Virus record (IMG/VR): IMGVR_UViG_3300035703_000020
Span: 85,879 to 149,878 of that record
DNA length: 64,000 bases
Origin: a virus
Strand: one strand, 5' to 3'
Part shown: one piece after another, positions 3,489 through 57,980 of the stretch
Layout of the letters: each line of letters begins with the position of its first letter
Position numbering within the stretch: the stretch's first letter is position 1
Made by a program: the position numbers and the translations under genes
Notes under the pieces: model-generated
Seen by the model: only the letters and a program-made list of their open reading frames with translations
Database searches by the model: none
What the model was told of the DNA's origin: nothing

Positions 3489-5173
3489 GGCCCATCATCA
3501 CGCACGCGTCGCAGCTGGAGGAGCACTCGAGCTGGCGCGTGTACAAGCGCGGGCTCCGCGAGCTGGAGCTCATGGAGGCGCCGAAGAGCGTGCTGCAGGA
3601 CTACAGGTTCCGCGCGGCGCGCTCTTGCTTTCTGGCGTTCGCGGACGTCATGCTCGACGGCAAGCTGCAGGTCGCCGACTTCCACGAGATCATCGGCTCC
3701 GCGTTCGAGGACGTCGCCCAGCTGCGCTACCAGAGGCTGATCGTCAGCTGCGCGCCGCGCTCGGGCAAGTCAATGCTCGCCCAGCTGTTCGTCGCATGGC
3801 TCCTCGGCCACGACGAGCAGACGCAGCACATCATCGCGTCGTACGGCCAGCTCCTCTCGAACAAGTTCAACCGCGGGGTCAACGGCTACCTCCGCCACAA
3901 GCACTTCCAGCGCATCTTCCCCGAGTGGAGCGGCTTCCACCCGGACTCCAAGTACGACATGCGCGGCGGCGGGTTCATCCTCGCGACGTCCGTCGGCGGG
4001 GTGCTCACAGGCTTCACGGCCGGGACGCCGCACGAGGACAGCCCCGGCGTCGGCGCGATGGTCATCGACGACCCGCTGAAGGGCTCGGACTCCCGCGCCG
4101 CGTTCGAGGAGTTAGAGGACTGGTGGGGCGAGCAGGCGTCCACCCGGCGCACGAACCGCTGGGCCCAGCTCGTCATCGGCACCCGCTTCGGCGAGAAGGA
4201 CCTCCACGGCCTCCTGATGGACGGCGACGGCCTCTGGGACCCCGACGACAACCCGAAGGGCTGGCGGTGGGTGAACATCGAGGCGCTCTGCGAGAACGAG
4301 GCGACCGACATCCTCGGCCGGAAGAACGGCGAGTCGCACTGGCCCGGTAACGGCACCTTCACCGTCGACATGCTCCTCTCGCAGAAGAGGATCATGGGCT
4401 CGGACAAGTTCTCCGCGCTCTACCAGGGCAGGCCGACGGCGCAGGAGGGCTCGATCGTCAAGGCGGGCTGGATCAGCGTGAAAAGGCCCGAGGACTGCCC
4501 GGAGTTCGACATCACCTACCTGTCGCTCGACACGGCGTTCTCCGAGAAGCAGAGCGCGGACGAAAGCGTGATCGCGGTGATGGGCTACTCGCGCAAGCAC
4601 AAGGACGACGTCTACGTCCGCGAGATCATCAGCGGGCGGTGGGGCTTCCCAGACCTGCTCGCCATGCTCGAGCAGACGCGGAAATACTATGGGGCGAAGT
4701 TCCTCACGATCGAGCAGGCGGCGTCCGGCCAGTCGCTGATCCAGATGCTCGAGCGGGAGAGCAAGATACACATCCACGGATTCAAGCCGCTGCGGTCCAA
4801 GACGATCCGCCTGCAGACGGTGTCCCCGCTGTGGGAGGCCGGGCGCGTGCACTTCGTCGAGGGCGCCTGGACGGACGACTTCATTAAGGAGCTCACGGCC
4901 TTCCCCTTCGTGCCGCACGACGACCGGACTGACGCGGTCGTTTACGGGTTGACGTACTACATGTTCCACCTCGACGGTGGAACGCACGGCGACACGCTCC
5001 AGGCGATTGTCGGCGCCAAGGGCAAGTCACCAGGCCGCGGGCAGCTCACGGGCGAGTTCACGGAGCTGCGGAGCGGCAGGAAGCGCGAGCTGCTGACGCA
5101 CGGCGAGAGGGCACTGTACTTCGGCAAAGGCGGCAAGCGGTCGGGGCTCTCGTACGACATAGGCATGGACTGA
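3485..5173 (+). CDS. terL: Terminase large subunit
   Basis: Walker A APRSGKS, Walker B MVIDDP, nuclease motifs LSLDTA, IEQAASG and FPFVPHDDRTDA. True start is ATG 3485 (MRPIITH). Confidence 0.92.
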   Translation: MRPIITHASQLEEHSSWRVYKRGLRELELMEAPKSVLQDYRFRAARSCFLAFADVMLDGKLQVADFHEIIGSAFEDVAQLRYQRLIVSCAPRSGKSMLAQLFVAWLLGHDEQTQHIIASYGQLLSNKFNRGVNGYLRHKHFQRIFPEWSGFHPDSKYDMRGGGFILATSVGGVLTGFTAGTPHEDSPGVGAMVIDDPLKGSDSRAAFEELEDWWGEQASTRRTNRWAQLVIGTRFGEKDLHGLLMDGDGLWDPDDNPKGWRWVNIEALCENEATDILGRKNGESHWPGNGTFTVDMLLSQKRIMGSDKFSALYQGRPTAQEGSIVKAGWISVKRPEDCPEFDITYLSLDTAFSEKQSADESVIAVMGYSRKHKDDVYVREIISGRWGFPDLLAMLEQTRKYYGAKFLTIEQAASGQSLIQMLERESKIHIHGFKPLRSKTIRLQTVSPLWEAGRVHFVEGAWTDDFIKELTAFPFVPHDDRTDAVVYGLTYYMFHLDGGTHGDTLQAIVGAKGKSPGRGQLTGEFTELRSGRKRELLTHGERALYFGKGGKRSGLSYDIGMD

Positions 5174-5302
5174 TCCCCCTTCACATGCTTAGCCGACGAG
5201 CGGGGCATCTTATTCAATAAGTAAAAGAAGACATGGGTAATATAATGACGTTCGCGTCTTACACTCGTGCCGAATAATAGATTCCAGAAGAAACGCACCT
5301 TC

Positions 5303-5563
5303 ATGAAGACTCAGCCAATGGACGACCGATTCATAGAGGAGCGCATCCCCGTAGAGGCCAAACCACCGCGTAATTACCTTCGTGATCGCGGCAAGCGACT
5401 CACTAATCGAGCCACCGGACGCCGCATAACCGTGCAGGGCGGTGTCGGTTGGAAAGAGATCTGCGAAGAGATCCTCCGCGATGGTACGCATCCGAAATCA
5501 CTCGCCCAGGTTGCGGCTGGAAAATGGAAAACTGCCAATGGGTGGGAGGTCGAGGTATTGTGA
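5303..5563 (+). CDS. NUMOD1-like DNA-binding protein
   Basis: C-terminal LAQVAAGKWKTANGWEV resembles NUMOD1/IENR1; lies in a lower-GC island. Confidence 0.5.
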   Translation: MKTQPMDDRFIEERIPVEAKPPRNYLRDRGKRLTNRATGRRITVQGGVGWKEICEEILRDGTHPKSLAQVAAGKWKTANGWEVEVL

Positions 5564-5997
5564 AACACAAGCACAGAATCACGCCAGGCTACGAAGGTGG
5601 TGAGTACGTAGAGGGGAATGTAGTCGAGCTGACACCGACGCAGCACGCAATGTGGCATTTCGCCGAATGGCAACGCAAAGGCAATTGGCAAGATAGATTA
5701 GCGTGGCAGTGCTTGACCGCGCAATGCACGAGGGGGGAAGCTGTAAGAAAAGCTCAATCAGAAGGCGGTAAACTGGGAGGCAGATCAAGACCATCGGCTG
5801 AAGCTAGAGAGAAAATGAGCGCGTGGCAACGTGGTGAAAGGAGCCCGAGTTACGGAAAATGTAAGAGCGAGGAAACGCGGAGGAAAATTTCGGCAAGTAG
5901 CAAGGGAAAGAAACTGAGCGAGGAAACACGCCGCAAAATAAGCGAGGCCAGTAAAGGTAGAACACCATGGAATAAGGGCTTGCGTCTGCGGGGGTAA
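5560..5997 (+). CDS. HNH homing endonuclease with NUMOD3 repeats
   Basis: HKHRI..GG.Y..GNV..LT..QH..WH HNH core, two SEETRRKIS repeats and PWNKG; lower GC than flanks. Confidence 0.8.
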   Translation: MKHKHRITPGYEGGEYVEGNVVELTPTQHAMWHFAEWQRKGNWQDRLAWQCLTAQCTRGEAVRKAQSEGGKLGGRSRPSAEAREKMSAWQRGERSPSYGKCKSEETRRKISASSKGKKLSEETRRKISEASKGRTPWNKGLRLRG

Positions 5998-6027
5998 GCT
6001 CGGGACATACCTTGGCAAGAATATGCC

Positions 6028-6828
6028 ATGGCAAAAATTAAAGGGGGTGAGCCGCATGATCACCTAGAGTTCGCATTGGTCGAATCTCAAACCTTTGTCA
6101 CCGATACAATGCCAGCTTGCAAAGAGCGTCGCAAGGAACGCAGGGCTAACGTGGCCCGCGCCGAGCTCGACACCCACCGCAACATGGACCTCATGCCGTT
6201 CATCCCGAGGACGGACAGGCAGGAGGAGCTCTGGACATGCCTCAACAAGAACACCGTCACGATCGCCGTCGGCCCGGCCGGCGTCGGTAAGACCCTCGTG
6301 GCCCTGCACTGGGGCCTCAGCTCGATCAGGGTCAACCAGATCGACAAGATCTACTACCTGCGCTCCGACGTCGGGGTCATGCACCAGCGGGGCCGCGGCG
6401 CGCTGCCGGGCACGATGGAGGAGAAGATGGCGCCGCTCGTCGGCCCGGTCTTCGACAACCTCAACGTGATCATGCGGTCGCACGGCGCCGCCGAGTACCT
6501 CGTCAACAAGAAGGTCGTCGAGCCGATCCTGCTCGAGGACGTCCGCGGCCGCTCGCTGTCGAACTGCCTGATCGTCTTTGACGAGGCGCAGAACGCCACG
6601 CCCGACCAGTGCAAGACCGTGCTGAGTCGCGTCGGCGAGAACGCCAAGGTGGTCCTCACGGGCGACACCAGGCAGATCGACCTCGACGTGTTCCAGACCA
6701 ACTGCGGGCTGATCGACGCCTACCAGCGCCTCGCGGGGCTCGACCAGGTCGGCAGGGTCCGGTTCACGGCCGACGACATCGTGCGCAACTCGGTGATCGC
6801 ACACATCCTCAGAAGGTATGACGACTGA
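6028..6828 (+). CDS. phoH: PhoH family ATPase
   Basis: GPAGVGKT, GALPG, RGRSL, DEAQN, GDTRQID, DIVRN motifs. Confidence 0.93.
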   Translation: MAKIKGGEPHDHLEFALVESQTFVTDTMPACKERRKERRANVARAELDTHRNMDLMPFIPRTDRQEELWTCLNKNTVTIAVGPAGVGKTLVALHWGLSSIRVNQIDKIYYLRSDVGVMHQRGRGALPGTMEEKMAPLVGPVFDNLNVIMRSHGAAEYLVNKKVVEPILLEDVRGRSLSNCLIVFDEAQNATPDQCKTVLSRVGENAKVVLTGDTRQIDLDVFQTNCGLIDAYQRLAGLDQVGRVRFTADDIVRNSVIAHILRRYDD

Positions 6829-7594
6829 CGCGGACAGGTACGCATCCTCGTTCGACGGTGGGTCCCGGGAGGTTCTCGGGGCCCTCTTCGACTTCGCGGC
6901 GTGCGAGAGGCCGGACGGGTCCCGCTACGGGATCGCGGCCGGCAGGCGGTGCAGGAAGGGCCGCGAGGTCGACATCGAGGGCGCCGAGTGGGAGTACCTC
7001 ACGAAGGGCAACTACGGGGCCGTCGAGATCGACCGAAAGCAGGGGCTGATCCGCAAGACCAACGTGCCGGGCCGGAGCTTCGGCGAGCACGAGGCGGAGC
7101 TGCAGAGGATGATGGGCGACGCGGGCCACAGCCCGAAGCTCCACAGGGCGTCCGACAGCGAGATCGTCATGGACCTGGCGCCCGGGAAGACGATCTGGAA
7201 GGACTACAGGCCGTCCGAGGGCGAGAAGGGCGTGAGGTTCAACGAGGCGCAGGCCTCGGCCGCGGCGAAGGCCGTGCTGTTCCTCCACCGCAAGGGCTTC
7301 TACCACGGCGACATGCACAGCCTGCAGTGGATGGTGGACGGCGACAGGCCCATGCTGATCGACTTCGGCCTGAGCGGTAAAACGGCCTCGGACCCGAGGA
7401 AGGCGCTGCAGGACTGGACGAAGGGCGCGGCGTTCATGAACCTCGACGCCGTCGGCGGGGAGGGCGGCAGGCGCGTCCGGGACTACGTCGGGCGGTACAG
7501 GGAGGCGGGGGCGTCCAAGCCCGCGAAGGACAGGCAGGCCAAGCAGGAGCAGGTCGCCAGGGAGTACCTGGACTGGGTCGGCTCGCTCGGGTAA
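6818..7594 (+). CDS. Leader/Cys-motif protein with protein-kinase-like domain
   Basis: N-terminal FDFAACERPDGSRYG..CRKG; kinase motifs KGNYG, HGDMH, LIDFG. Confidence 0.8.
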   Translation: MTTDADRYASSFDGGSREVLGALFDFAACERPDGSRYGIAAGRRCRKGREVDIEGAEWEYLTKGNYGAVEIDRKQGLIRKTNVPGRSFGEHEAELQRMMGDAGHSPKLHRASDSEIVMDLAPGKTIWKDYRPSEGEKGVRFNEAQASAAAKAVLFLHRKGFYHGDMHSLQWMVDGDRPMLIDFGLSGKTASDPRKALQDWTKGAAFMNLDAVGGEGGRRVRDYVGRYREAGASKPAKDRQAKQEQVAREYLDWVGSLG

Positions 7595-7637
7595 ACCCTA
7601 CGAGGCGGGCTCCCGTCCCGCGTTAAAGCAGACTGCC

Positions 7638-8246
7638 ATGAGAAAAGACCGCTTCACCGACGAGGCCCTGCGGAACGCGCGGGCGCTCGCCGAACTGAAA
7701 TACTCCGAGAACCCCGAGGAGCAGACGGCCTTCGCGGAGGCCTACGACTTCGCGCGCTGCCAGCGGCCCGACGGCACCTTCTACGGCACCAGCGGCCAGT
7801 GCCGCAAGGGCCAGGAGGCCGGCGCCAACAAGAAGCTCAAGACGGACTTCCGCAAGGAGGTGGCCGCCGGCGCCGCCAAGCGCAAGGTGCGGGACGAAAA
7901 GATCACGGCCAGGCAGGGCCGCGACGCCGAGCTGCGGACGCAGATCCGCGACGCGATCGTCGCGCAGCGCCCGATCAAGGCCGAGCTCGACCGCCGCGAG
8001 CGGGCCCTCCGCGAGGTGGAGCGCCGCGTGAAGAAGGACCCCTCGAAGGAGAACAGGGCCAACATGAGGACGCTCGCCGCCGCCGTGCGGGAGAAGGAGC
8101 GCGAGTACAACAAGGCCGAGCGGGAGATCGAGAAGATGGCGCGCGAGCGGGCGCGCCTCGAGCGGCAGCGGCAGCGCGAGCTGATGACCCCGGCCCAGAG
8201 GGCCGAGGAGCGCCGCGTCGGCAAGATCATCAAGGAGCGCGGCTGA
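7638..8246 (+). CDS. Leader/Cys-motif protein with basic coiled coil
   Basis: YDFARCQRPDGTFYGTSGQCRKG followed by an R/E-rich helix. Confidence 0.8.
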   Translation: MRKDRFTDEALRNARALAELKYSENPEEQTAFAEAYDFARCQRPDGTFYGTSGQCRKGQEAGANKKLKTDFRKEVAAGAAKRKVRDEKITARQGRDAELRTQIRDAIVAQRPIKAELDRRERALREVERRVKKDPSKENRANMRTLAAAVREKEREYNKAEREIEKMARERARLERQRQRELMTPAQRAEERRVGKIIKERG

Positions 8247-8839
8247 TGGCCAGGGTACACAGCAACATCTTCGACAACTTCAGCGAGGAGGCCCTCGAGG
8301 CGCTGGACTTCGCCCGTTGCCAGCGGGCCGACGGCTCCTACTACGGGACCTCGGGCCAGTGCCGCAAGGGCAAGGAGGCGGGCGACAAGACAGCTGAGCA
8401 AAAGAAAGTTCCAACGGCGAAGCCCAGCGGAGTAAGCAACGAGCAGGCGATGAAGCTCCGCGCCTCCCTCACCAAGCAGATCGGCGACGCAGCAAAGTCC
8501 CGCGACCTGAACAAGACCAACAATCTGATGCAGGCGCTCGCGGCCGTCGAAGGTCAGCTCAAGGCCAGAGGCGTTAATCTCGCCGGAGGCGGGGCGATGG
8601 CCGAGGCCAAGGCCGGCGAGCGCGAGATCGCCCGCGGCGAGAAGTTCATCGGCCGCGCCCGCGTCGCGATGAAGAAGCTCTCCAACGAGCGCAATGTCGC
8701 CCAGATGCGCCTGCAGATCGGGCGCATGAACCAGATCGACGAGGCCATGAAGCGCCTCCGCAAGAAGGCTGAGCAGGTCGGCGGGCGGCTCGACGAGCTG
8801 ACCGGCACCAAGGGCCAGGGCAAGTACTACGTCCCCTGA
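8246..8839 (+). CDS. Leader/Cys-motif protein with basic C-terminus
   Basis: Start ATG 8246 (TGATG); LDFARCQRADGSYYGTSGQCRKG. Confidence 0.8.
   Translation: MARVHSNIFDNFSEEALEALDFARCQRADGSYYGTSGQCRKGKEAGDKTAEQKKVPTAKPSGVSNEQAMKLRASLTKQIGDAAKSRDLNKTNNLMQALAAVEGQLKARGVNLAGGGAMAEAKAGEREIARGEKFIGRARVAMKKLSNERNVAQMRLQIGRMNQIDEAMKRLRKKAEQVGGRLDELTGTKGQGKYYVP
8263..8387 (+). repeat. 125-bp perfect direct repeat, copy 1
   Basis: Identical to 8861-8985; encodes the leader and Cys motif. Confidence 0.95.
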
Positions 8840-8846
8840 GGCCGGC

Positions 8847-9365
8847 ATGGCGATACACGACAACATCTTCGACAACTTCAGCGAGGAGGCCCTCGAGGCG
8901 CTGGACTTCGCCCGTTGCCAGCGGGCCGACGGCTCCTACTACGGGACCTCGGGCCAGTGCCGCAAGGGCAAGGAGGCGGGCGACAGGCCGGCCGAGGCGC
9001 CCAAGGGCGACCGGGCGCCGGTGCTCAAGGACCGCATCGCCAAGGCTAAGGCGTCAGGTGACAAGAAGAAGCCTGAGATCGACGAGAGCAAGCTCTACAG
9101 GCTGAATCAGAAGCAGAACCAGCTGGCCGAGAGAATCGGGCGCGAGCGGTCCATGCTGGCCCGCATGAGCACGGGCAAGGCGGCTGCCGAGCTCCGCAAG
9201 CGGCGCGAGGACCGCATCAAGAAGCTCTCGCGGTCGCTCAAGCGGCTGGGCGAGCTGCGAACCGAGGCGAACAGGCGGCTCGACAAGGGCGCCAGGAAGT
9301 CCGGCAGGCCGAGGCCGCTGATGGCCCCCAACTGGGGTACCAGCCCCGGGAGACCCACCAAGTAG
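8847..9365 (+). CDS. Leader/Cys-motif protein with basic C-terminus
   Basis: Same N-terminus as the 8246 gene, unrelated C-terminus. Confidence 0.8.
   Translation: MAIHDNIFDNFSEEALEALDFARCQRADGSYYGTSGQCRKGKEAGDRPAEAPKGDRAPVLKDRIAKAKASGDKKKPEIDESKLYRLNQKQNQLAERIGRERSMLARMSTGKAAAELRKRREDRIKKLSRSLKRLGELRTEANRRLDKGARKSGRPRPLMAPNWGTSPGRPTK
8861..8985 (+). repeat. 125-bp perfect direct repeat, copy 2
   Basis: Identical to 8263-8387. Confidence 0.95.
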
Positions 9366-9369
9366 GCCC

Positions 9370-9789
9370 ATGAACAACTTCGGACGCATCAACCCCGAGG
9401 CCCTCGAGTGGGCCGAGAACCCCGAGTGGGCCGAGAAGTACGGCGGCATCGACTTCCGCCCGCCCCAGTCCGTGGCTGACGCGGCGGCGCGCGGGCTCGA
9501 GCTGCGCAAGAAGACGGGCCGCGGCGGCTTCAGCACGAAGCAGGCGGCCGCCGAGGGCGTGGGCTCCGGCGTGCAGCGCGCCGCGTCGCTGAAGAACAGG
9601 CAGTCGCTGTCGCCGGCGACCATCGGCCGCATGGTGAGCTTCTTCGCCCGCCACTCGGCGTACAAGAAGGACCACACGACGGACCCCCCGTCCAACAGCC
9701 TCATCTCGTGGCTGCTCTGGGGCGGCGACCCGGGCAGGGCCTGGGCCGAGAAGGTCAAGGCGCAGATGGACCGGGCCGATGAGAAGTAG
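9370..9789 (+). CDS. Conserved phage hypothetical protein (head-region type)
   Basis: PPQSVADAAARGLELR..RMVSFFARH..WLLWGGD.G..WA pattern; leader-like N-terminus with EWAE twice. Confidence 0.7.
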   Translation: MNNFGRINPEALEWAENPEWAEKYGGIDFRPPQSVADAAARGLELRKKTGRGGFSTKQAAAEGVGSGVQRAASLKNRQSLSPATIGRMVSFFARHSAYKKDHTTDPPSNSLISWLLWGGDPGRAWAEKVKAQMDRADEK

Positions 9790-11218
9790 GCTACCGCAGC
9801 ACGGCGGCTGGGACACCGGCCTCGAGGCGAAGGCCAGGGAGGTCCTCGCGCTCCGCTACTCTGAGTCGAACGGGCACCTGGACTACACGATCTGCCAGCG
9901 CGCGGACGACTCCCGGTACGGGATCGGCGAGGGCAAGGAGTGCCGCAAGGGGAAGGAGGTCAGTCGCGAGGAGGTGCTCACGATGCTGACGCGCGAGGGG
10001 CTCGTGCGCACGGACAAGCAGCGCGAGAGGCTCAGGCAGCTCGACGACAAGACCCTTGCGAAGGTCGCCGACAGGGCGGTCACCCGCGCCGAGCAGGGCA
10101 CGCTGAAGATCGCCGGGAAGATCCAGGAGAAGCAGGGGCTCGACGAGGGGCAGGCCAAGCGCGCCGCCACGGCCGTCCGCGCGCTGAAGTACGACCCGTC
10201 CGGCAGCAAGAAGGAGGGCGGCGCCAACCTGCAGGACCCGGGCGAGGCCGCGAAGTACGCCGAGTTCTACGCGAACAAGCAGGACCTCAAGTACAAGTCG
10301 CCCTTCGACACCGACCCCAAGGTGGTCAAGGCGACGCTAGCGCAGCTCAAGGAGGAGATGCCGGCGTCCGACTACCAGAAGCTGATGACCGCCCTCGGCG
10401 GCAAGGGCAGCCCGACCAAGGAGCAGCTCGATGCCGCCGGTTGGAAGGGCCGCGGCGAGCGCGCCGAGGCCGTGCTCAAGTCCCTCATGGACAATGACTT
10501 CAAGGACGTCATGGGCAAGGAGCTGTCATGGCGCCAGGGCCTGCAGCTCGACCACAAGCGCGCCGGGTCCACCGGCGGCAGCGACCGCCCGGACAACTGG
10601 ATCTGGATCTCGACCGCGTCGAACCAGGTCAAGGGTGGCATGGAGGCCGCGGCCAAGAAGCGCCAGGGCACCGCGGTCGAGAAGGAGGACTTCATCCGCC
10701 GCGGGCTGATCGAGAAGCTCCAGGCCAACGCCAGGATGACGCCCGACCAGGTCCGCGAGGCCAAGGCCGCCGGGTCGATGGGCGCCTCGGCCAAGGCCGA
10801 GAAGGCCGCCGCCATGCGCGACAATCTCCCGCTGATGACCCCGCAGCAGCGGGCAGAGCGGATCCGGGACGCCAGCATCGACGACCTGAAGGCCATGCTG
10901 AAGGGCTCCGTCAACCCGGACAAGACCAACCCGGCGACCGGCCGCAAGCCGTCCTACCGCCCCGTCCTCAGCGGCGGCGGCGGCGCGCGGGTCCGCAAGG
11001 ACTACGGCACCGGCCCGCAGATGAAGTCGCTGATGCGGCTGCGCTGGGGCGAGAAGCTCGAGGAGAACGACATCAAGAACATCGGCGCCATGCTCGGGGC
11101 GTCGACCGGCAGCACCAAGAGCGCCAAGGACAAGCTCGAGGAGCTCCTGGGCAACTTCCCGCCGACCAGTGGCCTGACGGCCGCCGAGCGGGTCGCGATC
11201 ATCAAGGAGGCAGGCTGA
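9779..11218 (+). CDS. Leader/Cys-motif protein with HNH-like domain
   Basis: LDYTICQRADDSRYG..CRKG; internal LQLDHKRAGSTGGSDRPDNWIWISTASNQVKG. Confidence 0.75.
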   Translation: MRSRLPQHGGWDTGLEAKAREVLALRYSESNGHLDYTICQRADDSRYGIGEGKECRKGKEVSREEVLTMLTREGLVRTDKQRERLRQLDDKTLAKVADRAVTRAEQGTLKIAGKIQEKQGLDEGQAKRAATAVRALKYDPSGSKKEGGANLQDPGEAAKYAEFYANKQDLKYKSPFDTDPKVVKATLAQLKEEMPASDYQKLMTALGGKGSPTKEQLDAAGWKGRGERAEAVLKSLMDNDFKDVMGKELSWRQGLQLDHKRAGSTGGSDRPDNWIWISTASNQVKGGMEAAAKKRQGTAVEKEDFIRRGLIEKLQANARMTPDQVREAKAAGSMGASAKAEKAAAMRDNLPLMTPQQRAERIRDASIDDLKAMLKGSVNPDKTNPATGRKPSYRPVLSGGGGARVRKDYGTGPQMKSLMRLRWGEKLEENDIKNIGAMLGASTGSTKSAKDKLEELLGNFPPTSGLTAAERVAIIKEAG

Positions 11219-11220
11219 CC

Positions 11221-13566
11221 ATGGCTAAACTGACGCAGCACGGCGCCTTCGACGCCGACAGTGAGAGGAGGGCCCGCGAGGAGCTCCTCACCGAATTCAC
11301 CGAGGGCCGGTCCTGGGCGGACGCTTGCGGCGACTGGTCGGCAGAGGACTTCGGCGAGATCGCGGACGGATTCGACTTCGCGCAGCTCTGCCAGAAGCCG
11401 GACGGCAAGATCTACGGGACCCAGGGCCAGTGCCGCAAGGGCACGCCCATCTCCTACCGCCCGGGCGACCGCCAGGGCGACGTCTACAACAAGGGCCGCG
11501 CGGCCGGCATGCGGGTCGAGTCGATCCTCGACGAGAACAAGCGCCTCCGCCTCGAGAAGGGCCTCAAGATGGTCAAGGGGCCCGAGGCGGTCCAGTCGCT
11601 CGTCCGCAGGCTGAACCAGCGGATGGGCGTGGCGCAGAAGCCCGACGACCAGAAGAACGTCAAGACACCGGAGCAGGCGGCCAAGGCGGCCAAACCTCCC
11701 GAGACCCCGTCGCGCCAGGCGTCCCAGGCGCTGCGCGACCTAGTCAAGGCCGGCGACCGCCTCGACGCCAGGGCCGCGCAGAGCGCCGCAGACCGCCTTC
11801 AGGCGGCGAGGGCGGCGGCCGAGAAGCCCGCGTGGCAGCGGGAGCGGGACGTGATGAACAGGGGCCCAGCGGACCCCGCGGGGCAAGAAAAGCAGCTGAA
11901 GTTCAACCTCAGGGTCGCCCAGAACAAGGGGACGCAGTCGCAGATAGTCAGGGCGCAGAACGAGCTCCGCGAGTTCCGCAAGCAGCAGCGGATGGTCAAG
12001 GAGGCAGCCAGGCCAGGGGCCAAACCCGCGGCCGCCAAGCCCGCGGCTAACGCGGCGAAGGAGAAGCCCTCGATGCAGGTCAACGCGCGGTTCCTGAAGA
12101 AGGAGACGACGCAGAAGCTGCAGGAGTACCTCGACGGCCGCAAGCTGTACGCCTACCAGCGCAAGGCGATCGAGGAGGAGCTCAAGCGCCGCGAGAAGGC
12201 CGGCCAGGCCGACGTGCGCGTCCGCCGCGAGGCCCCCAAGGCAGCTGCCCCGAAGGCGTCTCTCGGCGACAGGGCGGCGCGCAAGGCCGCCATCGACGAC
12301 GTCAACCGCCAGATCGAGGCCATCCGCCGCCGGCGCAACGAGCCGGCCTACCAGAAGCCCGACCAGAAGAAGTTCCTCGACAGCCTGGAGATCGGGCTGG
12401 TCCGCCGCCGCATGGACATCGAGGCCGGCGTCGCCCTGCCGAAGGCCGGCGCGAAGTCCCTCAACGACACCTCAGCCCTGGCGAAGCGCGCGCTCCAGCC
12501 CGGCTCCGCCGGCCGCGAGGCCCGCCTGAAGCTCGGCGAGAAGGTCAGGCTCGAGCGCGCCAAGGCCGGCATCGGCCCGGAGGTCGCGTCGGCCAAGCCT
12601 GCCCGCGTCGACCAGAAGCTGCTCCAGGCTCCCACCGACAAGCTCCAGGCGATCCTCCGCCGGGGCGACCTCGGCGCCGGTCAGCGCAAGAAGATCGAGG
12701 AGGAGCTCGGCGGCCGCGGCGTGACGCCCGCAAGGCCCGTGAAGATCACCGCCGGCATGACCACCGACGCGGCCGTCAAGGCGGGCTGGAAGCTCGACCG
12801 CGCGGTCAGGGACTACGACCCGATCGCCGTCTACAGCCAGACAGGCAACCAGCTGCTTGCGAAGGGCGCGTTCGGCGCCGCCTACCGCACCGACGGCCCG
12901 CCGCCCGGCGTCATCAAGCAGGGCAAGATCGGCGAGCACGAGGCGGAGGTCTGGCAGAAGCTGCAGGGCACCGGCCGCGTCCCCGAGTTCCACGGCGCCG
13001 TCGTCAGCCCGAACATGCGCGTCGTCGGCTCCGGCTACGGTGGCCACGTGAAGGAGGGCAGCGGCTACCTGGGCATCGGCGAGGCGAAGGGCGTCCCCGT
13101 GGCGAAGTACAGCCCGCGCACGAACGAGGAGAGGAACAAGGTCCTCGAGGAGTACATCCGCGCCCGCCGCGACATCCACCTAGCCGGCGTCGCCCACAAC
13201 GACATGCACGGCAACAACGTCTTCTATGACAAGGCGACCGGCAGGATGCAGCTCATCGACTTCGGCCTGGCGCAGCCGAGCTACAAGGCCGCCCTCATGG
13301 AGGCCTTCGGCACCAACCAGGGCGACTGGCAGTCCGAGCGGTTCATCGGGAACTACTCGGGGCGCGGGGGCGAGGCGCCCGCCTACTACCGCTTCCGGCG
13401 GAACCAGGAGCGGGTCAACCGCGCGCTCGAGGAGCTCGACATCGACACCAACCGCATGCGCGGGATGGGCATCCGGAACAAGCCGGAGCACATCGACCGG
13501 GTCCTCAACGGGATGTCCGAGCAGGCCGCCAAGGCGTACGTAGAGATGCTGTACGAGGGCGTCTAG
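11221..13566 (+). CDS. Leader/Cys-motif protein with C-terminal protein kinase domain
   Basis: True start 11221 (MAKLTQHG). FDFAQLCQKPDGKIYGTQGQCRKG; kinase motifs AKGAFG, VIK, HNDMHGNN, LIDFGLA. Confidence 0.85.
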   Translation: MAKLTQHGAFDADSERRAREELLTEFTEGRSWADACGDWSAEDFGEIADGFDFAQLCQKPDGKIYGTQGQCRKGTPISYRPGDRQGDVYNKGRAAGMRVESILDENKRLRLEKGLKMVKGPEAVQSLVRRLNQRMGVAQKPDDQKNVKTPEQAAKAAKPPETPSRQASQALRDLVKAGDRLDARAAQSAADRLQAARAAAEKPAWQRERDVMNRGPADPAGQEKQLKFNLRVAQNKGTQSQIVRAQNELREFRKQQRMVKEAARPGAKPAAAKPAANAAKEKPSMQVNARFLKKETTQKLQEYLDGRKLYAYQRKAIEEELKRREKAGQADVRVRREAPKAAAPKASLGDRAARKAAIDDVNRQIEAIRRRRNEPAYQKPDQKKFLDSLEIGLVRRRMDIEAGVALPKAGAKSLNDTSALAKRALQPGSAGREARLKLGEKVRLERAKAGIGPEVASAKPARVDQKLLQAPTDKLQAILRRGDLGAGQRKKIEEELGGRGVTPARPVKITAGMTTDAAVKAGWKLDRAVRDYDPIAVYSQTGNQLLAKGAFGAAYRTDGPPPGVIKQGKIGEHEAEVWQKLQGTGRVPEFHGAVVSPNMRVVGSGYGGHVKEGSGYLGIGEAKGVPVAKYSPRTNEERNKVLEEYIRARRDIHLAGVAHNDMHGNNVFYDKATGRMQLIDFGLAQPSYKAALMEAFGTNQGDWQSERFIGNYSGRGGEAPAYYRFRRNQERVNRALEELDIDTNRMRGMGIRNKPEHIDRVLNGMSEQAAKAYVEMLYEGV

Positions 13567-13608
13567 CCCGCATAATACCACGAAGAGCACCGACACCCAC
13601 ACCACACC

Positions 13609-13764
13609 ATGGCCAGCAAGTACGTGGAGCTGATGACCAAGCGCAAGGAGGCCCTGTTCAGGGGCGACGAGGCCACGGCCGAGAAGCTCCTGACCCTCGC
13701 CGAGAAGCTCGCGGAGCGCGGCAAGGTCTCCGACGACGAATTCCTCGCGGCAGCGTACCTATGA
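13609..13764 (+). CDS. Small helical hypothetical protein (51 aa)
   Basis: MASKYVELMTKRKEALFRGDE...; ATGA overlap with next gene; CATAAT at 13571. Not in the ORF track. Confidence 0.65.
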   Translation: MASKYVELMTKRKEALFRGDEATAEKLLTLAEKLAERGKVSDDEFLAAAYL

Positions 13765-14372
13765 GCGGCCGAGCACCAGAGCAGCAGGTAGTCGACTACC
13801 TCGAGGCGGCCGGCTACAGGCCCGACTCCATCATCCGCTACCTCGAGGCGCAGGTCGCCCGCGAGTGGGCGTCCGCCGACTTCGCCGAGTGCGGACCGGG
13901 CGAGAAGATGACGTTCGGCGTCTGCCGCAAGATCGGTGAAGCCCCCGCGGCCCAGCCCGCGCAGCAGGGCGCCACGCCGGCGCAGCCCCGGGCTCAACAG
14001 CCAGGGCAGAGGGCGGCGGGCCAGCAGCCCAAGCCGAAGGAGGCGCAGAAGTCCGGCATGGAGGAGAAGCTCGAGAAGGCCGCGAAGGCTCAGGGCTCCG
14101 ACGCCACCAACAACCGCAAGGTGGTGATCGACGGCAAGGCGTACGGCTGGGCGATCCAGAACGGCAAGCCGATCATGGTCGAGTGGGGCGCCGTCGCCGG
14201 CATCAAGAAGGTCGGGCCAAAGCAGGCCAAGCCCAAGCGCGGCGGCCGCCGCGGTGGCGCTGGCGGCGACAACGCGGGCCGCATCGCGGGACTGAAGAAG
14301 GCGCTCGAGAAGCAGGTCAACGAGGCCGGGCGCCAGGCCATCCTGAAGCAGATCCAGGAGCTGGGCGGGTAA
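13761..14372 (+). CDS. Protein with degenerate Cys motif
   Basis: ADFAECGPGEKMTFGVCRK variant of the family motif, then a Q/P linker and basic tail. Confidence 0.7.
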   Translation: MSGRAPEQQVVDYLEAAGYRPDSIIRYLEAQVAREWASADFAECGPGEKMTFGVCRKIGEAPAAQPAQQGATPAQPRAQQPGQRAAGQQPKPKEAQKSGMEEKLEKAAKAQGSDATNNRKVVIDGKAYGWAIQNGKPIMVEWGAVAGIKKVGPKQAKPKRGGRRGGAGGDNAGRIAGLKKALEKQVNEAGRQAILKQIQELGG

Positions 14373-14402: not shown

Positions 14403-15134
14403 ATGTCCGGATTCGGGAGCTTCTCGCAGGAGGCCTACGAGCAGCTGCGGCAAGCATACTCTGACCAGCTCCAGCGCGCAGACGAGATCGAGGAGGCCGG
14501 CGTCCAGATCGGCCAGGACAAGCTCGGCGTCGAGACCGCGCCCGTCCGCAGCGACTGGCTCGACAAGACCGGCCTCTGGAAGTACCCCGACGGCCGCGGC
14601 GAGCGCCAGGACGTCGAGCAGCGGCAGCAGGACCTCCTGGCCGCCCTCCGCGACGAGGACGGTAACCTCCCCGACAACGATGACGACGAGCAGGACCTCG
14701 ACGCGATGTCCGACGAGGAGATCGACGCCCTGATCAGCCAGGTCCTCGACGAGATCGACGGAGACGACGACGAGGAGGAGGAGGAGCCCGGCGGCGACGA
14801 CCTCGTCTCCAGGATCCTCGAGGCCATCGGCGACGGCGGGCTGAGCGACGAGGAGATCGACGCCGCGATCGACCAGATCCTGGGCGAGGGCGACGCCGCC
14901 GAGGATGACGACGACGAGGGGGAGGAGAGCGACGAGCCGTCCGCCGACGAGATCGCGTCCAGGATCGCCGAGCTCAGGGCCGAGCTGGCCGCACTGTCCG
15001 AGGGCGGCGGGGACGAAGAAGAGGACGAGGACTACGAGCCCGAAGAAACTCAGGGCGACGAGGAGGAAACCGAACCCGACAACGACACCGACATCGAAGA
15101 CGAGGAGGTGACCTCCGATGATGAACCTAACTGA
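14403..15134 (+). CDS. Highly acidic protein, possible prohead core/scaffold
   Basis: D/E-rich with repeated SDEEIDA.I.Q.L helices; N-terminal GFGSFSQEAYE resembles the family leader. Confidence 0.6.
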   Translation: MSGFGSFSQEAYEQLRQAYSDQLQRADEIEEAGVQIGQDKLGVETAPVRSDWLDKTGLWKYPDGRGERQDVEQRQQDLLAALRDEDGNLPDNDDDEQDLDAMSDEEIDALISQVLDEIDGDDDEEEEEPGGDDLVSRILEAIGDGGLSDEEIDAAIDQILGEGDAAEDDDDEGEESDEPSADEIASRIAELRAELAALSEGGGDEEEDEDYEPEETQGDEEETEPDNDTDIEDEEVTSDDEPN

Positions 15135-16601: not shown

Positions 16602-17216
16602 ATGCCAGTCAAGAAGGGAAAGGGCTGCGTCGCCGACGTCATGCGTGAGTGGAAGGCAGGCCAGCTCCACTCCGGCGAGGACGGCAAGGTCGTCAAGGAC
16701 CAGAAGCAGGCGGTCGCCATCGCCCTGTCGATGTGCGGCGGCAGCCGCGAGAAGGCCAAGTCGTACGAGGAGTACGCCAACAGCCTGGTCGACGAGGTGA
16801 AGGACACCTACGCCGAGAAGTGCGGCTGCAAGCACAAGAAGGGCACGAAGGAGTACGGTGAGTGCAACTGCGGCTGCAAGGGCTGCAAGCGCCGCGCGAT
16901 GGCCATCGGCTACCCCACCCCGACCTTCGGCGAGGAGGAGACGATCGGCATGATCCGCACCCGCCTCAAGGTCATGCACGGCCGCCTGTCCGACATCGAG
17001 CGGGCGATCGAGATGGCGATGATGCGGGGTAGCGAGATCGAGATGGAGCCCTGGATGATCGACAAGATCACCCTGGCCGCAGACTACCTCTCGGCGGTCG
17101 CCGATAACGCCGTGTACGGCGACGGCATCGAGGTCGAGATGGAGAACGAGGGCGAGGAGGAGGAGGGCGGTTACGCGCAGTTCCGCCGCTTCGGGTACGC
17201 CGAGGGAAAGGGCTGA
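16602..17216 (+). CDS. DUF6496-like protein, Cys-rich; upstream partner of a -1 frameshift
   Basis: VMREWKAGQLHSG..KQAVAIALS; CGC/CNCGCKGC; ends G_GGA_AAG_GGC_TGA. Confidence 0.75.
   Translation: MPVKKGKGCVADVMREWKAGQLHSGEDGKVVKDQKQAVAIALSMCGGSREKAKSYEEYANSLVDEVKDTYAEKCGCKHKKGTKEYGECNCGCKGCKRRAMAIGYPTPTFGEEETIGMIRTRLKVMHGRLSDIERAIEMAMMRGSEIEMEPWMIDKITLAADYLSAVADNAVYGDGIEVEMENEGEEEEGGYAQFRRFGYAEGKG
17204..17210 (+). promoter_or_regulatory. Candidate -1 ribosomal frameshift slippery site G_GGA_AAG
   Basis: X_XXY_YYZ in the correct phase, one codon before the stop; the -1 frame continues to 17668. Confidence 0.7.
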
Positions 17217-28753: not shown

Positions 28754-28921
28754 ATGCTGAGACTCCTGGAACTGCTCATCCGTGGCCACATCCACGACTG
28801 GGAGACCATTGACCAGCGCAGATTCAACTGGTCCAACGACTTCGGGGAGCAGGGGACCTGCACCCGCTTCTACCTCCGCTGTAAGAAATGCGGCTGGATC
28901 CGCAAGATCGACTGCAGATGA
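28754..28921 (+). CDS. Small Zn-ribbon-like protein (55 aa)
   Basis: GHIHDW...RCKKCG; GAGGT RBS. Confidence 0.6.
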   Translation: MLRLLELLIRGHIHDWETIDQRRFNWSNDFGEQGTCTRFYLRCKKCGWIRKIDCR

Positions 28922-29142
28922 GGCACTTCGCGAGCTGGTACTACACCGCCCGCGCGGGCACTATACTATACGGCTGGGCGTGCCTCAGGCTGGCCGTCCG
29001 CTACTGGAGGTTCCTCGTGTTCGGCTCGGACAAGTACGGGCCCCGCGAGGTGGAGGGCGCCAGGATACAGTTCTTCGAGTCGCTCGACCCCAAGTCGATC
29101 TCCGACGACTTCATACGCAACAACCACCTGAGACTGCAATGA
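28918..29142 (+). CDS. Hypothetical protein
   Basis: ATGA overlaps on both sides. Confidence 0.5.
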   Translation: MRHFASWYYTARAGTILYGWACLRLAVRYWRFLVFGSDKYGPREVEGARIQFFESLDPKSISDDFIRNNHLRLQ

Positions 29143-30689
29143 CGTCCAAGCTCAACAGGATAGCGATAGTCGGCGGCGGGTCCGCTGGCTGGATGTCCGC
29201 GGCGACGATGGTCAGGGCGCTGCCGGACGCCGAGGTCGTCATCATCGAGAGCCCGGACCACCCGGTCGTCGGGGTCGGCGAGAGCACGCTGGGATCGATT
29301 AGGGACTGGACGAATTGGCTCGGGCTGGACGAGGACGAGCTCATCCGCGGCACCGACGCGTCGATCAAGCTCAGCATCCGGTTCACCAACTTCGAGACCG
29401 AGAGCTCCGGGTCGTTCCATTACCCGTTCGGGCAGGTCGTCCTCCCCGAGAACCACGACAATGGCACGTCCGACTGGTACCTCCGCAAGGCCATGGACCC
29501 GTCGCTGCCGGTCCAGGACTACGCCAGGACCTACTTCCCGAACATGGCGCTCGTGGAGGCCAACCGGGTCTCCCGCGACGCGCGTGCACTCGACGGGTTC
29601 CTCTACAGGAGGGACACCGCCTTCCACTTCGACGCGATCAAGTTCGGCCAGTGGCTCAAGACCGGCTACTGCCTGCCGCGCGGGGTCGAGCTCATCCAGG
29701 ACTCCGTCGAGCACGTCAGCACCTCTGACGGCGCGGTGACGTCCCTCCGCCTGAGCCGCGGCGGCGAGGTCTCGGCCGACCTGTACATCGACTGCACGGG
29801 GTGGAAAGGGCTGCTCATAGGCGAGGCACTCGGCGTCGGCATGCGGCCGTTGAGGGACCTGCCCAACAACAGGGCCATCGCCACGCGCGTGCCCTACGTC
29901 GACAAGCGCTCGCAGCTGGTGCCGTACACGGACTGCACCGGGCTCAAGAACGGGTGGGTGTGGAACATCCCGCTGTGGTCGCGCATGGGCATCGGCTACG
30001 TGTACAGCGACGCGCACACGTCCCACGACGGCGCGCTCTCGGAGCTCGAGGGCTACCTGGCCGGGCTCGGCGTCAGGGATTTCGACAGCCTGGAGTTCCG
30101 GCCGATCGAGATCGGCACGGGGCTGCGGCACGAGATCTGGAGCTCCAACGTGGTCGCCATAGGCCTGTCGGCGGGGTTCATCGAGCCCCTCGAGAGCAAC
30201 GGGCTCTTCACCGTGCACCAGTTCCTGCTCAAGCTGGCGACGCTCGTCCAGCGCGGGGACGTCAACCAGTGGGACCGCGACTGCTTCAACTGGGCGGCGA
30301 GGCGCCAGTTCGAGTCGTTCGAGGAGTTCGTCGCGCTCCACTACGCCCTCAGCCGCCGGGACGACTCGGAGTACTGGCGCGACGTGACCGAGATGAGCCG
30401 CGCGTCCAACCTGGCGGCGAGCGTCGGCGACTACATGTTCTACGCCGACCAGCGGCTGGTCTCCAAGCGCTTCGACCCCGTGGCCGGCATGCAGTGCATC
30501 GCGACCGGGATGAACCGCTTCCCCCTCAGCGAGATCGAGCTGCTGCCCATCTTCGAGATGCACGGCGTGGATCCACGCCACAACGCCGCCGCCTACGATA
30601 GGGCGGCGGCTGTGCAGAGGGCTCGGTGGGACTCCGCCGCCGCATCCCTCCCCACGCTGCACGAATTCCTGGAGAGAATCCACAGATGA
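29139..30689 (+). CDS. Tryptophan halogenase family flavoprotein
   Basis: GGGSAGW, GVGEST, DCTG, GWVWNIPL, FIEPLESNG; true start 29139. Confidence 0.92.
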   Translation: MTSKLNRIAIVGGGSAGWMSAATMVRALPDAEVVIIESPDHPVVGVGESTLGSIRDWTNWLGLDEDELIRGTDASIKLSIRFTNFETESSGSFHYPFGQVVLPENHDNGTSDWYLRKAMDPSLPVQDYARTYFPNMALVEANRVSRDARALDGFLYRRDTAFHFDAIKFGQWLKTGYCLPRGVELIQDSVEHVSTSDGAVTSLRLSRGGEVSADLYIDCTGWKGLLIGEALGVGMRPLRDLPNNRAIATRVPYVDKRSQLVPYTDCTGLKNGWVWNIPLWSRMGIGYVYSDAHTSHDGALSELEGYLAGLGVRDFDSLEFRPIEIGTGLRHEIWSSNVVAIGLSAGFIEPLESNGLFTVHQFLLKLATLVQRGDVNQWDRDCFNWAARRQFESFEEFVALHYALSRRDDSEYWRDVTEMSRASNLAASVGDYMFYADQRLVSKRFDPVAGMQCIATGMNRFPLSEIELLPIFEMHGVDPRHNAAAYDRAAAVQRARWDSAAASLPTLHEFLERIHR

Positions 30690-56583: not shown

Positions 56584-56617
56584 AAGGTCATCGGCGCTAC
56601 CGATGGCCTTTCTTTTT
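56584..56617 (+). terminator. Terminator-like hairpin upstream of the psbA leader
   Basis: AAGGTCATCGG-cgcta-CCGATGGCCTT followed by TCTTTTT. Confidence 0.6.
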
Positions 56618-56632
56618 GGCCTCGGGAGCCAT

Positions 56633-56719
56633 CCTGCTGAAACGGGACTCGCACTCCTTACCGGGGCTAAGCAGGCTAAATACGCCCCTCATGCCGACCT
56701 TAAGGGGGGTCGGGAATAC
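56633..56719 (+). ncRNA. PhotoRC-II-like structured psbA leader RNA
   Basis: CCTTACC.GGGCTAA.CAG..AAATACGCCCCTCAT..GAATA resembles cyanophage psbA leaders; CCTGCT/AGCAGG and GGGGC/GCCCC pairings. Confidence 0.55.
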
Positions 56720-56761
56720 CGAAACGCCGGTCCCTGCCGCGCGCTTTCTTCTGAACGTTTA

Positions 56762-57772
56762 ATGGCTTCATCTGTTCTCTCCCGCCGCTCAACTAATTCC
56801 GGCTGGGAGTCTTTCTGCGAGTGGGTCACCTCGACGAACAACCGCCTCTACGTCGGTTGGTTCGGCACCCTGATGATCCCGACGTTGCTCGCCGCAACTA
56901 TTTGCTTCATCGTCGCCTTCATCGCAGCCCCACCGGTTGACATCGACGGAATCCGCGAGCCTGTTGCCGGCTCCCTCATGTACGGCAACAACATCATCTC
57001 CGGCGCCGTGGTACCGTCGAGCAATGCTATCGGCCTCCACTTCTACCCGATCTGGGAGGCCGCGTCCCTCGATGAATGGCTCTACAATGGCGGTCCTTAC
57101 CAGCTCGTCGTCTTCCACTTTCTCATCGGCGTTTTCTGCTATATGGGCCGGGAGTGGGAGCTTAGCTATCGCCTCGGCATGCGCCCTTGGATTTGTGTTG
57201 CTTACAGCGCTCCGGTAGCCGCCGCGACCGCCGTGTTCCTGGTCTATCCTTTCGGCCAGGGCAGCTTCAGCGACGGCATGCCCCTCGGCATCTCCGGCAC
57301 CTTCAACTACATGCTGGTGTTCCAGGCTGAGCACAACATCCTGATGCACCCCTTCCACATGCTCGGCGTCGCCGGCGTGTTCGGCGGCTCGCTCTTCAGC
57401 GCGATGCACGGCAGCCTCGTGACCAGCTCCCTGGTCCGCGAGACCACCGAGAACGAGTCCCAGAACTACGGCTACAAGTTCGGCCAGGAGGAGGAGACCT
57501 ACAACATCGTGGCCGCCCACGGTTACTTCGGTCGCCTGATCTTCCAGTACGCCAGCTTCAACAACAGCCGCAGCCTGCACTTCTTCCTGGCCGCGTGGCC
57601 CGTGATCGGCATCTGGTTCACCGCCCTGGGCGTGAGCACGATGGCGTTCAACCTCAACGGCTTCAACTTCAACCAGTCCATCGTGGACGCCCAAGGCAAG
57701 GTGATCAACACCTGGGCCGACGTGCTGAACCGCGCCGGTCTGGGCATGGAGGTGATGCACGAACGCAACGCT
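56762..57772 (+). CDS. psbA: Photosystem II D1, exon 1
   Basis: Clear D1 sequence up to MEVMHERNA; true start ATG 56762. Confidence 0.97.
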
Positions 57773-57980
57773 CGACTTGTGGGCGCCCTCGCCTGAAAGG
57801 GCGAGGTAAACTCCGGATGAATTGCTGGGAACCCGGCGGGGCAATCAGCAGCCAAGCCGCTCACGCTTGAGCGGAAGGTTCAGAGACTAGGCGGTGTGGA
57901 GAGCGCTCCACGTAAAACGCCACTAGCGTCCGGCACCTAAACCCCCTTGGGGCACGGTGAAGATATAGTCCAAGCGGGAG
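57773..57980 (+). mobile_element. Group I intron (208 nt, no ORF)
   Basis: 5' exon ends in U and the intron ends in G. P1 CGCU/GGCG and P10 UUGUG/CACAA pairings; AATTGCTGGGAA, AATCAGCAG, TTCAGAGACTA and AAGATATAGTCC core elements. Removal restores HERNA|HNFPLDLA. Confidence 0.93.

Follow-up and report, generated by a model that had tools for sequence, protein, structure and literature searches.

The stretch of viral DNA analysed here (64,000 nucleotides, "the window": positions 85,879 to 149,878, that is, the last 64 kb, of the 149,878-bp IMG/VR record IMGVR_UViG_3300035703_000020) contains an array of adjacent genes whose products carry the same short two-cysteine module near the N-terminus, followed by payloads of different kinds. 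The motif of this module, which we call the tag, is D[FY]xxC[QE][RK][PA]D[GD]xxYGx4-6CRKG; it is present in six adjacent genes (designated by their start positions in the window: 6818, 7638, 8246, 8847, 9779 and 11221), with its first cysteine at residues 24-57, and gene 13761 has a decayed, shortened copy (DFAECGPGEKMTFGVCRK). A sequence-only reading of the window had described the motif on these seven genes, and we see it in all of them. A regular-expression search of all six frames of the 149,878-bp genome finds canonical copies in the array and none outside it, a result with which a protein search of the genome agrees. The genes of the array and those that close it are as follows:

6818..7594, + strand: tagged protein of 258 residues; leader and cysteine hairpin (Cys29...CRKG), then a kinase-like domain (HGDMH / DFG)
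7638..8246, + strand: tagged protein of 202 residues; hairpin at residue 41 and a coiled-coil C-terminus that is very basic (isoelectric point, pI, 11)
8246..8839, + strand: tagged protein of 197 residues; FSEEALE leader and hairpin, then a basic C-terminus
8847..9365, + strand: tagged protein of 172 residues; FSEEALE leader and hairpin, then a helical-hairpin coiled coil
9370..9789, + strand: leader-only protein of 139 residues, without the cysteine hairpin; matches phrog_2859
9779..11218, + strand: tagged protein of 479 residues; slightly aberrant hairpin (DD for DG) and an HNH-like (Cas9-type HNH_4) domain at about residues 245-300
11221..13566, + strand: tagged protein of 781 residues; hairpin at residue 57, long basic linker, C-terminal protein-kinase-like domain (HNDMHGNN / DFG)
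13609..13764, + strand: conserved open reading frame (ORF) of 51 residues that closes the variable array in all relatives
13761..14372, + strand: protein of 203 residues whose hairpin is degenerate (DFAEC...FGVCRK); relatives have this gene at a fixed position
14403..15134, + strand: acidic protein of 243 residues, pI 4.1; N-terminal FSQEAYE leader without a hairpin

Every tagged protein is basic (pI 8.4-10.4). In a BLASTP comparison with composition correction, made on the sequences without the tag, the two kinase-like C-termini alone show similarity (E=0.005); the remaining ones are unrelated. Both kinase calls lie under the Pfam cut-off (19.3 and 26.3 bits to Pkinase, against 31.7), though the HxDxxxxN catalytic-loop and DFG motifs are present and the 11221 protein matches Cdc7 kinases in the PDB (E=7e-4); the proposal of two kinase folds is supported. 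So is that of an HNH-like domain: a profile of the 9779 family matches the Cas9 HNH domain 8d2k (E=1.5e-4). By-eye ParB-like and RelA/SpoT-like assignments for protein P0204 were dropped, there being no Pfam support at E values up to 1. In the 8847 protein, residues 80-150 are predicted by AlphaFold2 from the single sequence with a predicted local distance difference test (pLDDT) score above 90, and the tag part with low confidence. The 14403 protein had been called acidic and scaffold-like: it is indeed acidic (38% Asp plus Glu, with a conserved N-terminal ~110 residues and a variable Asp/Glu tail), but the probable scaffold is the C-terminal part of a Mu-like protease gene ~25 kb upstream.

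The module consists of two distinct parts, and the helix can occur without the cysteine hairpin, because the leader is found alone on 9370 and 14403 and lies ~20 residues upstream of the hairpin in a related locus (L036:9932). Across all ORFs of the genome, the pattern [EQP]EA[LY]E turns up five times, always among the first 14 residues of a real gene; the five bearers are 8246, 8847, 9370, 14403 and a 226-residue gene at genome 32,495. The earlier assignment of a cysteine-free leader to 9370 and 14403 is borne out by this pattern. Among relatives, an FSEEALE-type leader heads the 9370 and 14403 families plus several tagged proteins. In the fifth bearer (genome 32495-33175), an FSPEALE leader is followed by EFKSC...CLKG, a degenerate cysteine pair, and then by an Ala/Gly-rich region; GGGTAA, an element to which we return below, precedes this gene at +36.

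The hairpin is a mini-domain of ~25 residues with the consensus DF[AT]RC.R.DG..YGT.G.CRKG, the core of which (D, F, R, C, R, D, G, Y, G, T, G, C, R, K, G) is nearly invariant and usually starts 16-57 residues from the N-terminus. Given an alignment of 77 sequences, AlphaFold2 predicts for the tag a short helix and, after it, a three-stranded sheet (pLDDT 75-88). The suspicion that the motif belongs to no named family is supported: Pfam and PHROGs have no family for it, a literature search returned no paper that mentions it, a profile search of the PDB gave only a chance 10-residue match to FGF21, and Foldseek PDB, VIA-align and Atlas searches produced no significant fold match; thus, no already characterised domain was found to which the motif could be assigned. 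Weak rows of the fold searches, which serve as leads only, are DUF4124-type models (template-modelling scores of 0.44-0.50) and RbpA chains. Neither a known nucleic-acid-binding fold nor a known metal-binding fold was recovered in these searches, and the tag conserves only two cysteines and no histidine, in place of the four metal ligands of a zinc ribbon or zinc knuckle. There is no conserved protease site after the tag: G-x-E follows it in 49 of 115 proteins and [TS]P in 32 of 115. A CRKG-x-E prohead-protease site, which we had considered, was rejected for want of conservation.

The module is widespread. A word-seeded profile search of 5.8 billion proteins yielded 277 tagged proteins, and an exhaustive search with a hidden Markov model of the tag, run against 1.84 billion cluster representatives, yielded 920 clusters at E<=0.001, of which 220 are at E<=1e-10. 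With 920 clusters at 50% identity, the tag is a domain family that is large and undescribed. The payloads that can be recognised are APH, Pkinase, ABC1 and RIO kinases, ADP-ribosyltransferases (ARTs; ADPrib_exo_Tox/ART), a cytidylyltransferase-like nucleotidyltransferase (CTP_transf_like), DUF6496 and DUF6381; for most payloads no family is assigned. The C-termini of homologues are therefore not uniform, and the idea of a conserved N-terminal module with interchangeable payloads, formed from the window, now extends to hundreds of metagenomic proteins.

The phage carriers that we recovered belong to one lineage. They comprise 30 IMG/VR loci and three long metagenome contigs (GC content 45-67%), and every locus that can be placed has terL (60-92% identity), phoH and further genes in common with the present phage. 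Among cultured phages, only Synechococcus phage S-CBWM1 (Aokuangvirus) has the tag, on gp165 and on gp39, the latter with a nucleotidyltransferase payload. Arrays contain up to eight tagged genes; in one (L036), a kinase, an ART and a nucleotidyltransferase lie side by side, each tagged. The commonest arrangement is terL, phoH, the variable array and then a fixed gene set: the 51-residue ORF, the degenerate-tag gene, the acidic gene, three small genes, DUF6496, DUF5824 and a tail-fibre protein of ~1,150 residues. Relatives have conserved tagged orthologues of 6818, 7638, 11221 and 13761, and other tagged genes are present or absent even between phages with 92% identical terL. The relative represented by L017, for example, lacks 8847 and has an additional kinase; its 7638 orthologue has a 220-residue low-complexity expansion, and its 9370, the most conserved member of the array, retains 96% identity. 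The suggestion that these are polymorphic effectors is thus sustained as regards gene content, but not for those tagged proteins that are conserved orthologues and hence not freely polymorphic.

The array also contains an exact repeat of 125 nt:

8263..8387, + strand: 125-nt exact repeat, copy 1, covering the leader and hairpin of 8246 only
8861..8985, + strand: 125-nt exact repeat, copy 2, covering the leader and hairpin of 8847 only

The two copies are identical at every synonymous site, the DNA on either side of them is unrelated, and so are the two cargoes. Recombination between 8246 and 8847 at the tag is recent: since the identity is confined to the tag, the tag is a substrate for recent duplication or gene conversion.

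A second tag occurs in sister phages. S-CBWM1 and the low-GC relatives encode an N-terminal motif with four cysteines, K[RK]C.KGKSCG[SA][AT]CI.....C, at loci L013-L015 (S-CBWM1 gp106, gp113, gp161, gp162 and gp174), L034, L035, L039, L040, L041 and L045; the motif is absent from the present genome. Its bearers include three or four kinases, the first gene after phoH (a position in S-CBWM1 that matches that of the array) and a protein annotated "virion structural protein", an annotation that may rest on similarity rather than on proteomics. A profile of the four-cysteine tag finds 190 metagenome proteins, with Pkinase, ART, HNH_4, LPD1, DnaJ and MtfA-type peptidase (Peptidase_M90) payloads; kinase, ART and HNH are found on the two-cysteine tag as well, and LPD1 and Peptidase_M90 on the four-cysteine tag only. 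In proteins of 900-1,945 residues, the motif is repeated two or three times, every ~450 residues. LPD1 and the MtfA-type peptidase are hallmarks of polyvalent proteins, for which packaging, and delivery along with the DNA, have been argued (Iyer et al. 2017, PMC5512222). Because both tags have similar kinds of payload, they look functionally interchangeable, and the system is thereby linked to the polyvalent proteins.

The array lies inside a + strand run of structural genes that extends from terL to the tail fibres, and no + strand terminator-like site was found between terL and the tail-fibre gene. In the genome, the + strand has 33 copies of the element GGGTAA[AG] and the - strand 4; most copies are intergenic or at gene ends, and many lie ~33-40 nt upstream of a start codon. 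Genes with GGGTAA in front of them include 7638, 14403 and phoH, as well as the prohead protease/scaffold gene and further genes of the head and tail. The copies in the window include:

7589..7594, + strand: upstream GGGTAA motif, 49 nt ahead of the 7638 start
2796, 5992 (before phoH), 14367 (before 14403), 17687, 43068, 54001 and others: further GGGTAA copies

The sites are kept at syntenic positions in six relatives. What had been called GGGTAA promoters can consequently be described as a conserved, strand-specific upstream element, and we regard GGGTAA as a candidate phage promoter element. That it is common to the array and to the morphogenesis genes suggests that the two may be co-regulated, and the indirect evidence is in keeping with late synthesis of the tagged proteins alongside those of the virion.

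An ORF-by-ORF BLASTP comparison identifies S-CBWM1 as a relative of the present phage: terL (56% identity), phoH, the portal, the major capsid protein (64%), the sheath, the baseplate and replication genes are common to both. A megablast of the region against INPHARED found no matching phage DNA. The "terminal repeat" of the record is a 127-bp overlap. The phage carries psbA (window 56603-57796), and a tryptophan-halogenase-like gene (window 28782-30689; Pfam E=4.8e-101) lies amid the replication genes; such an auxiliary gene is unusual in a cyanophage. Between terL and phoH there is an insertion of ~850 nt with lower GC (window 5173-6028); its ORF at 5449-5997 has repeated EETRRKIS motifs that are NUMOD3-like by eye, which suggests that a homing endonuclease is encoded there. 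In L017, unlike the present genome, terL runs nearly straight into phoH.

The head module is Mu-like and is situated upstream of the window, at genome 60.5-66.4 kb. It comprises a Portal_Mu portal (PF06074), a Mu-like protease of 704 residues, the C-terminal part of which is long and charged, and an E-type capsid protein. A scan of the whole genome with Pfam PF04233 (Phage_Mu_F) gave no match. The protease is followed by a 239-residue protein (L016:9054-9770; genome 64054-64770) that ends in D.RTC.DC...PG..CRC.D.CRC, and 18 of its 30 Atlas neighbours are Phage_Mu_F clusters; judging from this motif and these neighbours, it is a MuF-like minor head protein that stands alone and escaped the PF04233 scan. 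A complex predicted for the tag and this MuF-like protein scored 0.00, which is evidence neither way.

Cysteine-rich stretches that resemble the tag occur in two further proteins, one of them encoded in the window:

16602..17216, + strand: DUF6496 protein with a cysteine-rich look-alike stretch (YAEKCGCKHKKGTKEYGECNCGCKGCKRR); its relation to the tag is uncertain

The other is the charged C-terminal part of the protease/scaffold protein (L016:6935-9046), which contains SCGKKGMSYEE; this resembles the DUF6496 stretch CG.K.KKG[TM][KS][EY]Y and, loosely, C.R..G..Y of the tag. Possibly, a hairpin motif is common to the protease/scaffold, the DUF6496 protein and the tag.

We also looked for the tag in bacteria. 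A peptide-word scan of species-representative genomes found nothing, and a degenerate-DNA scan of the same genomes gave six loci: three chance matches, two that are probably phage fragments or chimeric contig ends (L058 and L059), and one host gene (L060). In L059 (positions 133-450; Gemmobacter metagenome-assembled genome (MAG) contig JAUREX010000043.1), the tag-bearing ORF is confined to the first ~450 nt, and the rest of the contig is bacterial, with genes for a CO dehydrogenase flavoprotein, an aldolase and an FGGY kinase; it is probably a chimeric contig end. The host gene (L060:264-671; Prochlorococcaceae MAG contig JAJDUS010000043.1) encodes a protein of 135 residues with a signal peptide and two copies of the hairpin, and its contig is cyanobacterial chromosome, with MnmE and SelO nearby. 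Only four relatives of this protein are present among 5.8 billion proteins. The motif could have originated here, or the host could have captured the gene from a phage.

A conserved N-terminal module on interchangeable effectors is the signature of a trafficking or addressing domain. Given what the payloads are, that the proteins are basic, that their genes lie among structural genes and that there is a link to polyvalent proteins, the best reading in our view is that the tag module serves as a docking signal by which effectors would be loaded into the virion, probably into the head interior; this we propose tentatively, giving it a little less than an even chance. The kinase/ART/HNH-type payload set has been assigned to phage effectors that are packaged in the head and that enter the host by injection (PMC5512222), and ARTs that are encoded beside terminase or portal genes have been read as packaged, by an argument from context (PMC9503650). 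The process that we envisage is as follows: a two-part module, with an FSEEALE-type helix at the extreme N-terminus and a two-cysteine mini-domain (predicted to be a small three-stranded beta sheet), is joined by Lys/Ala/Glu-rich linkers to the payload and would dock proteins that are made together with the virion genes into the particle; the cargo would then reach the next host cell along with the DNA and do its work ahead of all phage gene expression, and recombination within the conserved tag would reshuffle that cargo. Such a system would be the split-gene counterpart of polyvalent proteins, of MuF-toxin fusions and of the capsid-targeting sequences (CTS) of phage T4. The confinement of the tag loci to one lineage fits a phage-encoded receptor. 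The module, its spread and lineage restriction, the diversity of its payloads, the recombination footprint, the common upstream motif and the second, seemingly interchangeable tag are what we observe; packaging, injection, a receptor and any role for metal or disulfide are what we infer. With slightly greater doubt, we suggest that both tags may be a new modular cargo-loading signal of a widespread cyanophage lineage, in the form of a folded and possibly metal- or disulfide-stabilised mini-domain. We are equally hesitant about the cargo of such a signal, which would consist of recombining kinases, ADP-ribosyltransferases, nucleases and DNA-coating proteins, loaded into the capsid for co-injection.

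Several observations weigh against virion loading, or at any rate do not call for it. The head genes (portal, Mu-like protease/scaffold, MuF-like protein and major capsid protein) are 25-30 kb from the array; S-CBWM1 gp39 lies amid tRNAs and small genes, in an early-looking region, and gp165 is annotated as hypothetical only; the HNH orthologue in L017 has lost its first cysteine; some proteins carry the tag internally or twice; the tag is not followed by a conserved cleavage site; and a few picocyanobacteria encode a predicted secreted protein with a tag-type hairpin, a fold that is therefore not bound to the capsid. The place of gp39, and the tolerance of internal and duplicated tags, would also suit a different scheme, in which the tag is an intracellular localisation domain that docks effectors made during infection on a macromolecule of host or phage, for example the nucleoid, RNA polymerase, the ribosome or a phage replication compartment. 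Nucleic-acid binding is suggested by the conserved Arg/Lys residues and by the Lys/Ala/Pro linkers behind the tag, which are histone-H1-like, and HNH proteins, kinases and ARTs hit DNA-associated targets in other phages. Nevertheless, we consider this localisation unlikely: the tagged genes are embedded among structural genes with which they have an upstream motif in common, two invariant Asp residues and restriction to a single phage lineage are atypical of a general DNA-binding motif, and the fold searches matched no known nucleic-acid-binding fold.

The cysteines themselves direct attention to a metal- or redox-dependent module for folding, pairing or switching, one that would steer the oligomerisation or activity of the payload instead of its address: either a half zinc site that a second copy completes, or a disulfide that forms outside the cell. 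The two cysteines are invariant in every copy, the interchangeable four-cysteine tag has four invariant cysteines (the full complement of a zinc site), the secreted look-alikes of the host would be disulfide-bonded, and many payloads are coiled coils that could pair. We nonetheless judge such a switch improbable, since it leaves unexplained both the presence of the same module on unrelated payloads of one locus and the separate leader helix on proteins that have no cysteine hairpin, and since no metal-binding fold was recovered. Lower still in our estimation, and indeed very improbable, is that the tags are module headers from giant polyvalent precursors whose units are now separate genes, so that the header has become nearly functionless. 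The ~450-residue periodicity of the four-cysteine tag in large proteins speaks for that origin, as do two-tag proteins, which look as if adjacent array genes, each with a leader of its own, had been fused in frame; but more than 12 near-invariant residues across genomes of 45-67% GC imply strong selection on the tag, and single-tag genes far outnumber multi-tag ones.

Should the tag truly serve for packaging, only the T4 CTS would precede it as a well-defined sequence address by which proteins are loaded into the heads of tailed phages, and none would precede it in a Mu-like head or in cyanophages. Candidate injected effectors against picocyanobacteria, which are major primary producers, could then be identified by the hundred from sequence alone, and the tag could be a portable means to load cargo into phage particles. 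Even if packaging is wrong, the tag architecture marks the host-manipulation arsenal of one phage lineage, for which a cultured model exists in S-CBWM1.

Phage P1 provides a precedent for such delivery: several of its Dar antirestriction proteins are internal to the head, are incorporated in order and are injected. We know of no sequence similarity between the Dar proteins and the tagged proteins, nor of a shared cysteine tag in P1. With T4, in which the CTS is found on the internal proteins IPI-III and on Alt, the likeness is closer: a short N-terminal element is common to unrelated, mostly basic proteins (six or seven here), basic charge being a property of internal head proteins; an Alt/VIP2-type ADP-ribosyltransferase is among the payloads of both; and DNA-linked delivery is the logic that we propose. 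However, the T4 element has ~10 residues and no cysteine and is cut off by the gp21 protease at L/I-x-E, whereas here a module of ~40 residues contains a predicted folded two-cysteine hairpin; a T4-type capsid-targeting sequence was ruled out, as the head is Mu-like, not of the T4 type with gp21 protease and gp22 core, and no conserved site of the L/I-x-E kind follows the tag.

MuF polymorphic toxins (MuF/SPP1 gp7 fusions) also combine a conserved, virion-associated N-terminal part with variable C-terminal effectors, ARTs included (PMC9503650); in contrast to them, none of the tagged proteins has PF04233, and the MuF-like gene stands alone beside the protease. With polyvalent proteins, the system has in common partly overlapping effectors (kinase, ART and HNH, plus LPD1 and the MtfA-type peptidase on the four-cysteine tag only), cassette-like variability and structural genes as neighbours. 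By contrast, polyvalent proteins have two to fifteen effector domains per polypeptide, whereas those of the window have one payload each, in separate genes (two-tag proteins do exist outside the window), and the Pfam families that our scans recovered, with LPD models among them, include neither tag. The system works like the T4 CTS, the MuF fusions and the polyvalent proteins, yet it belongs to none of them.

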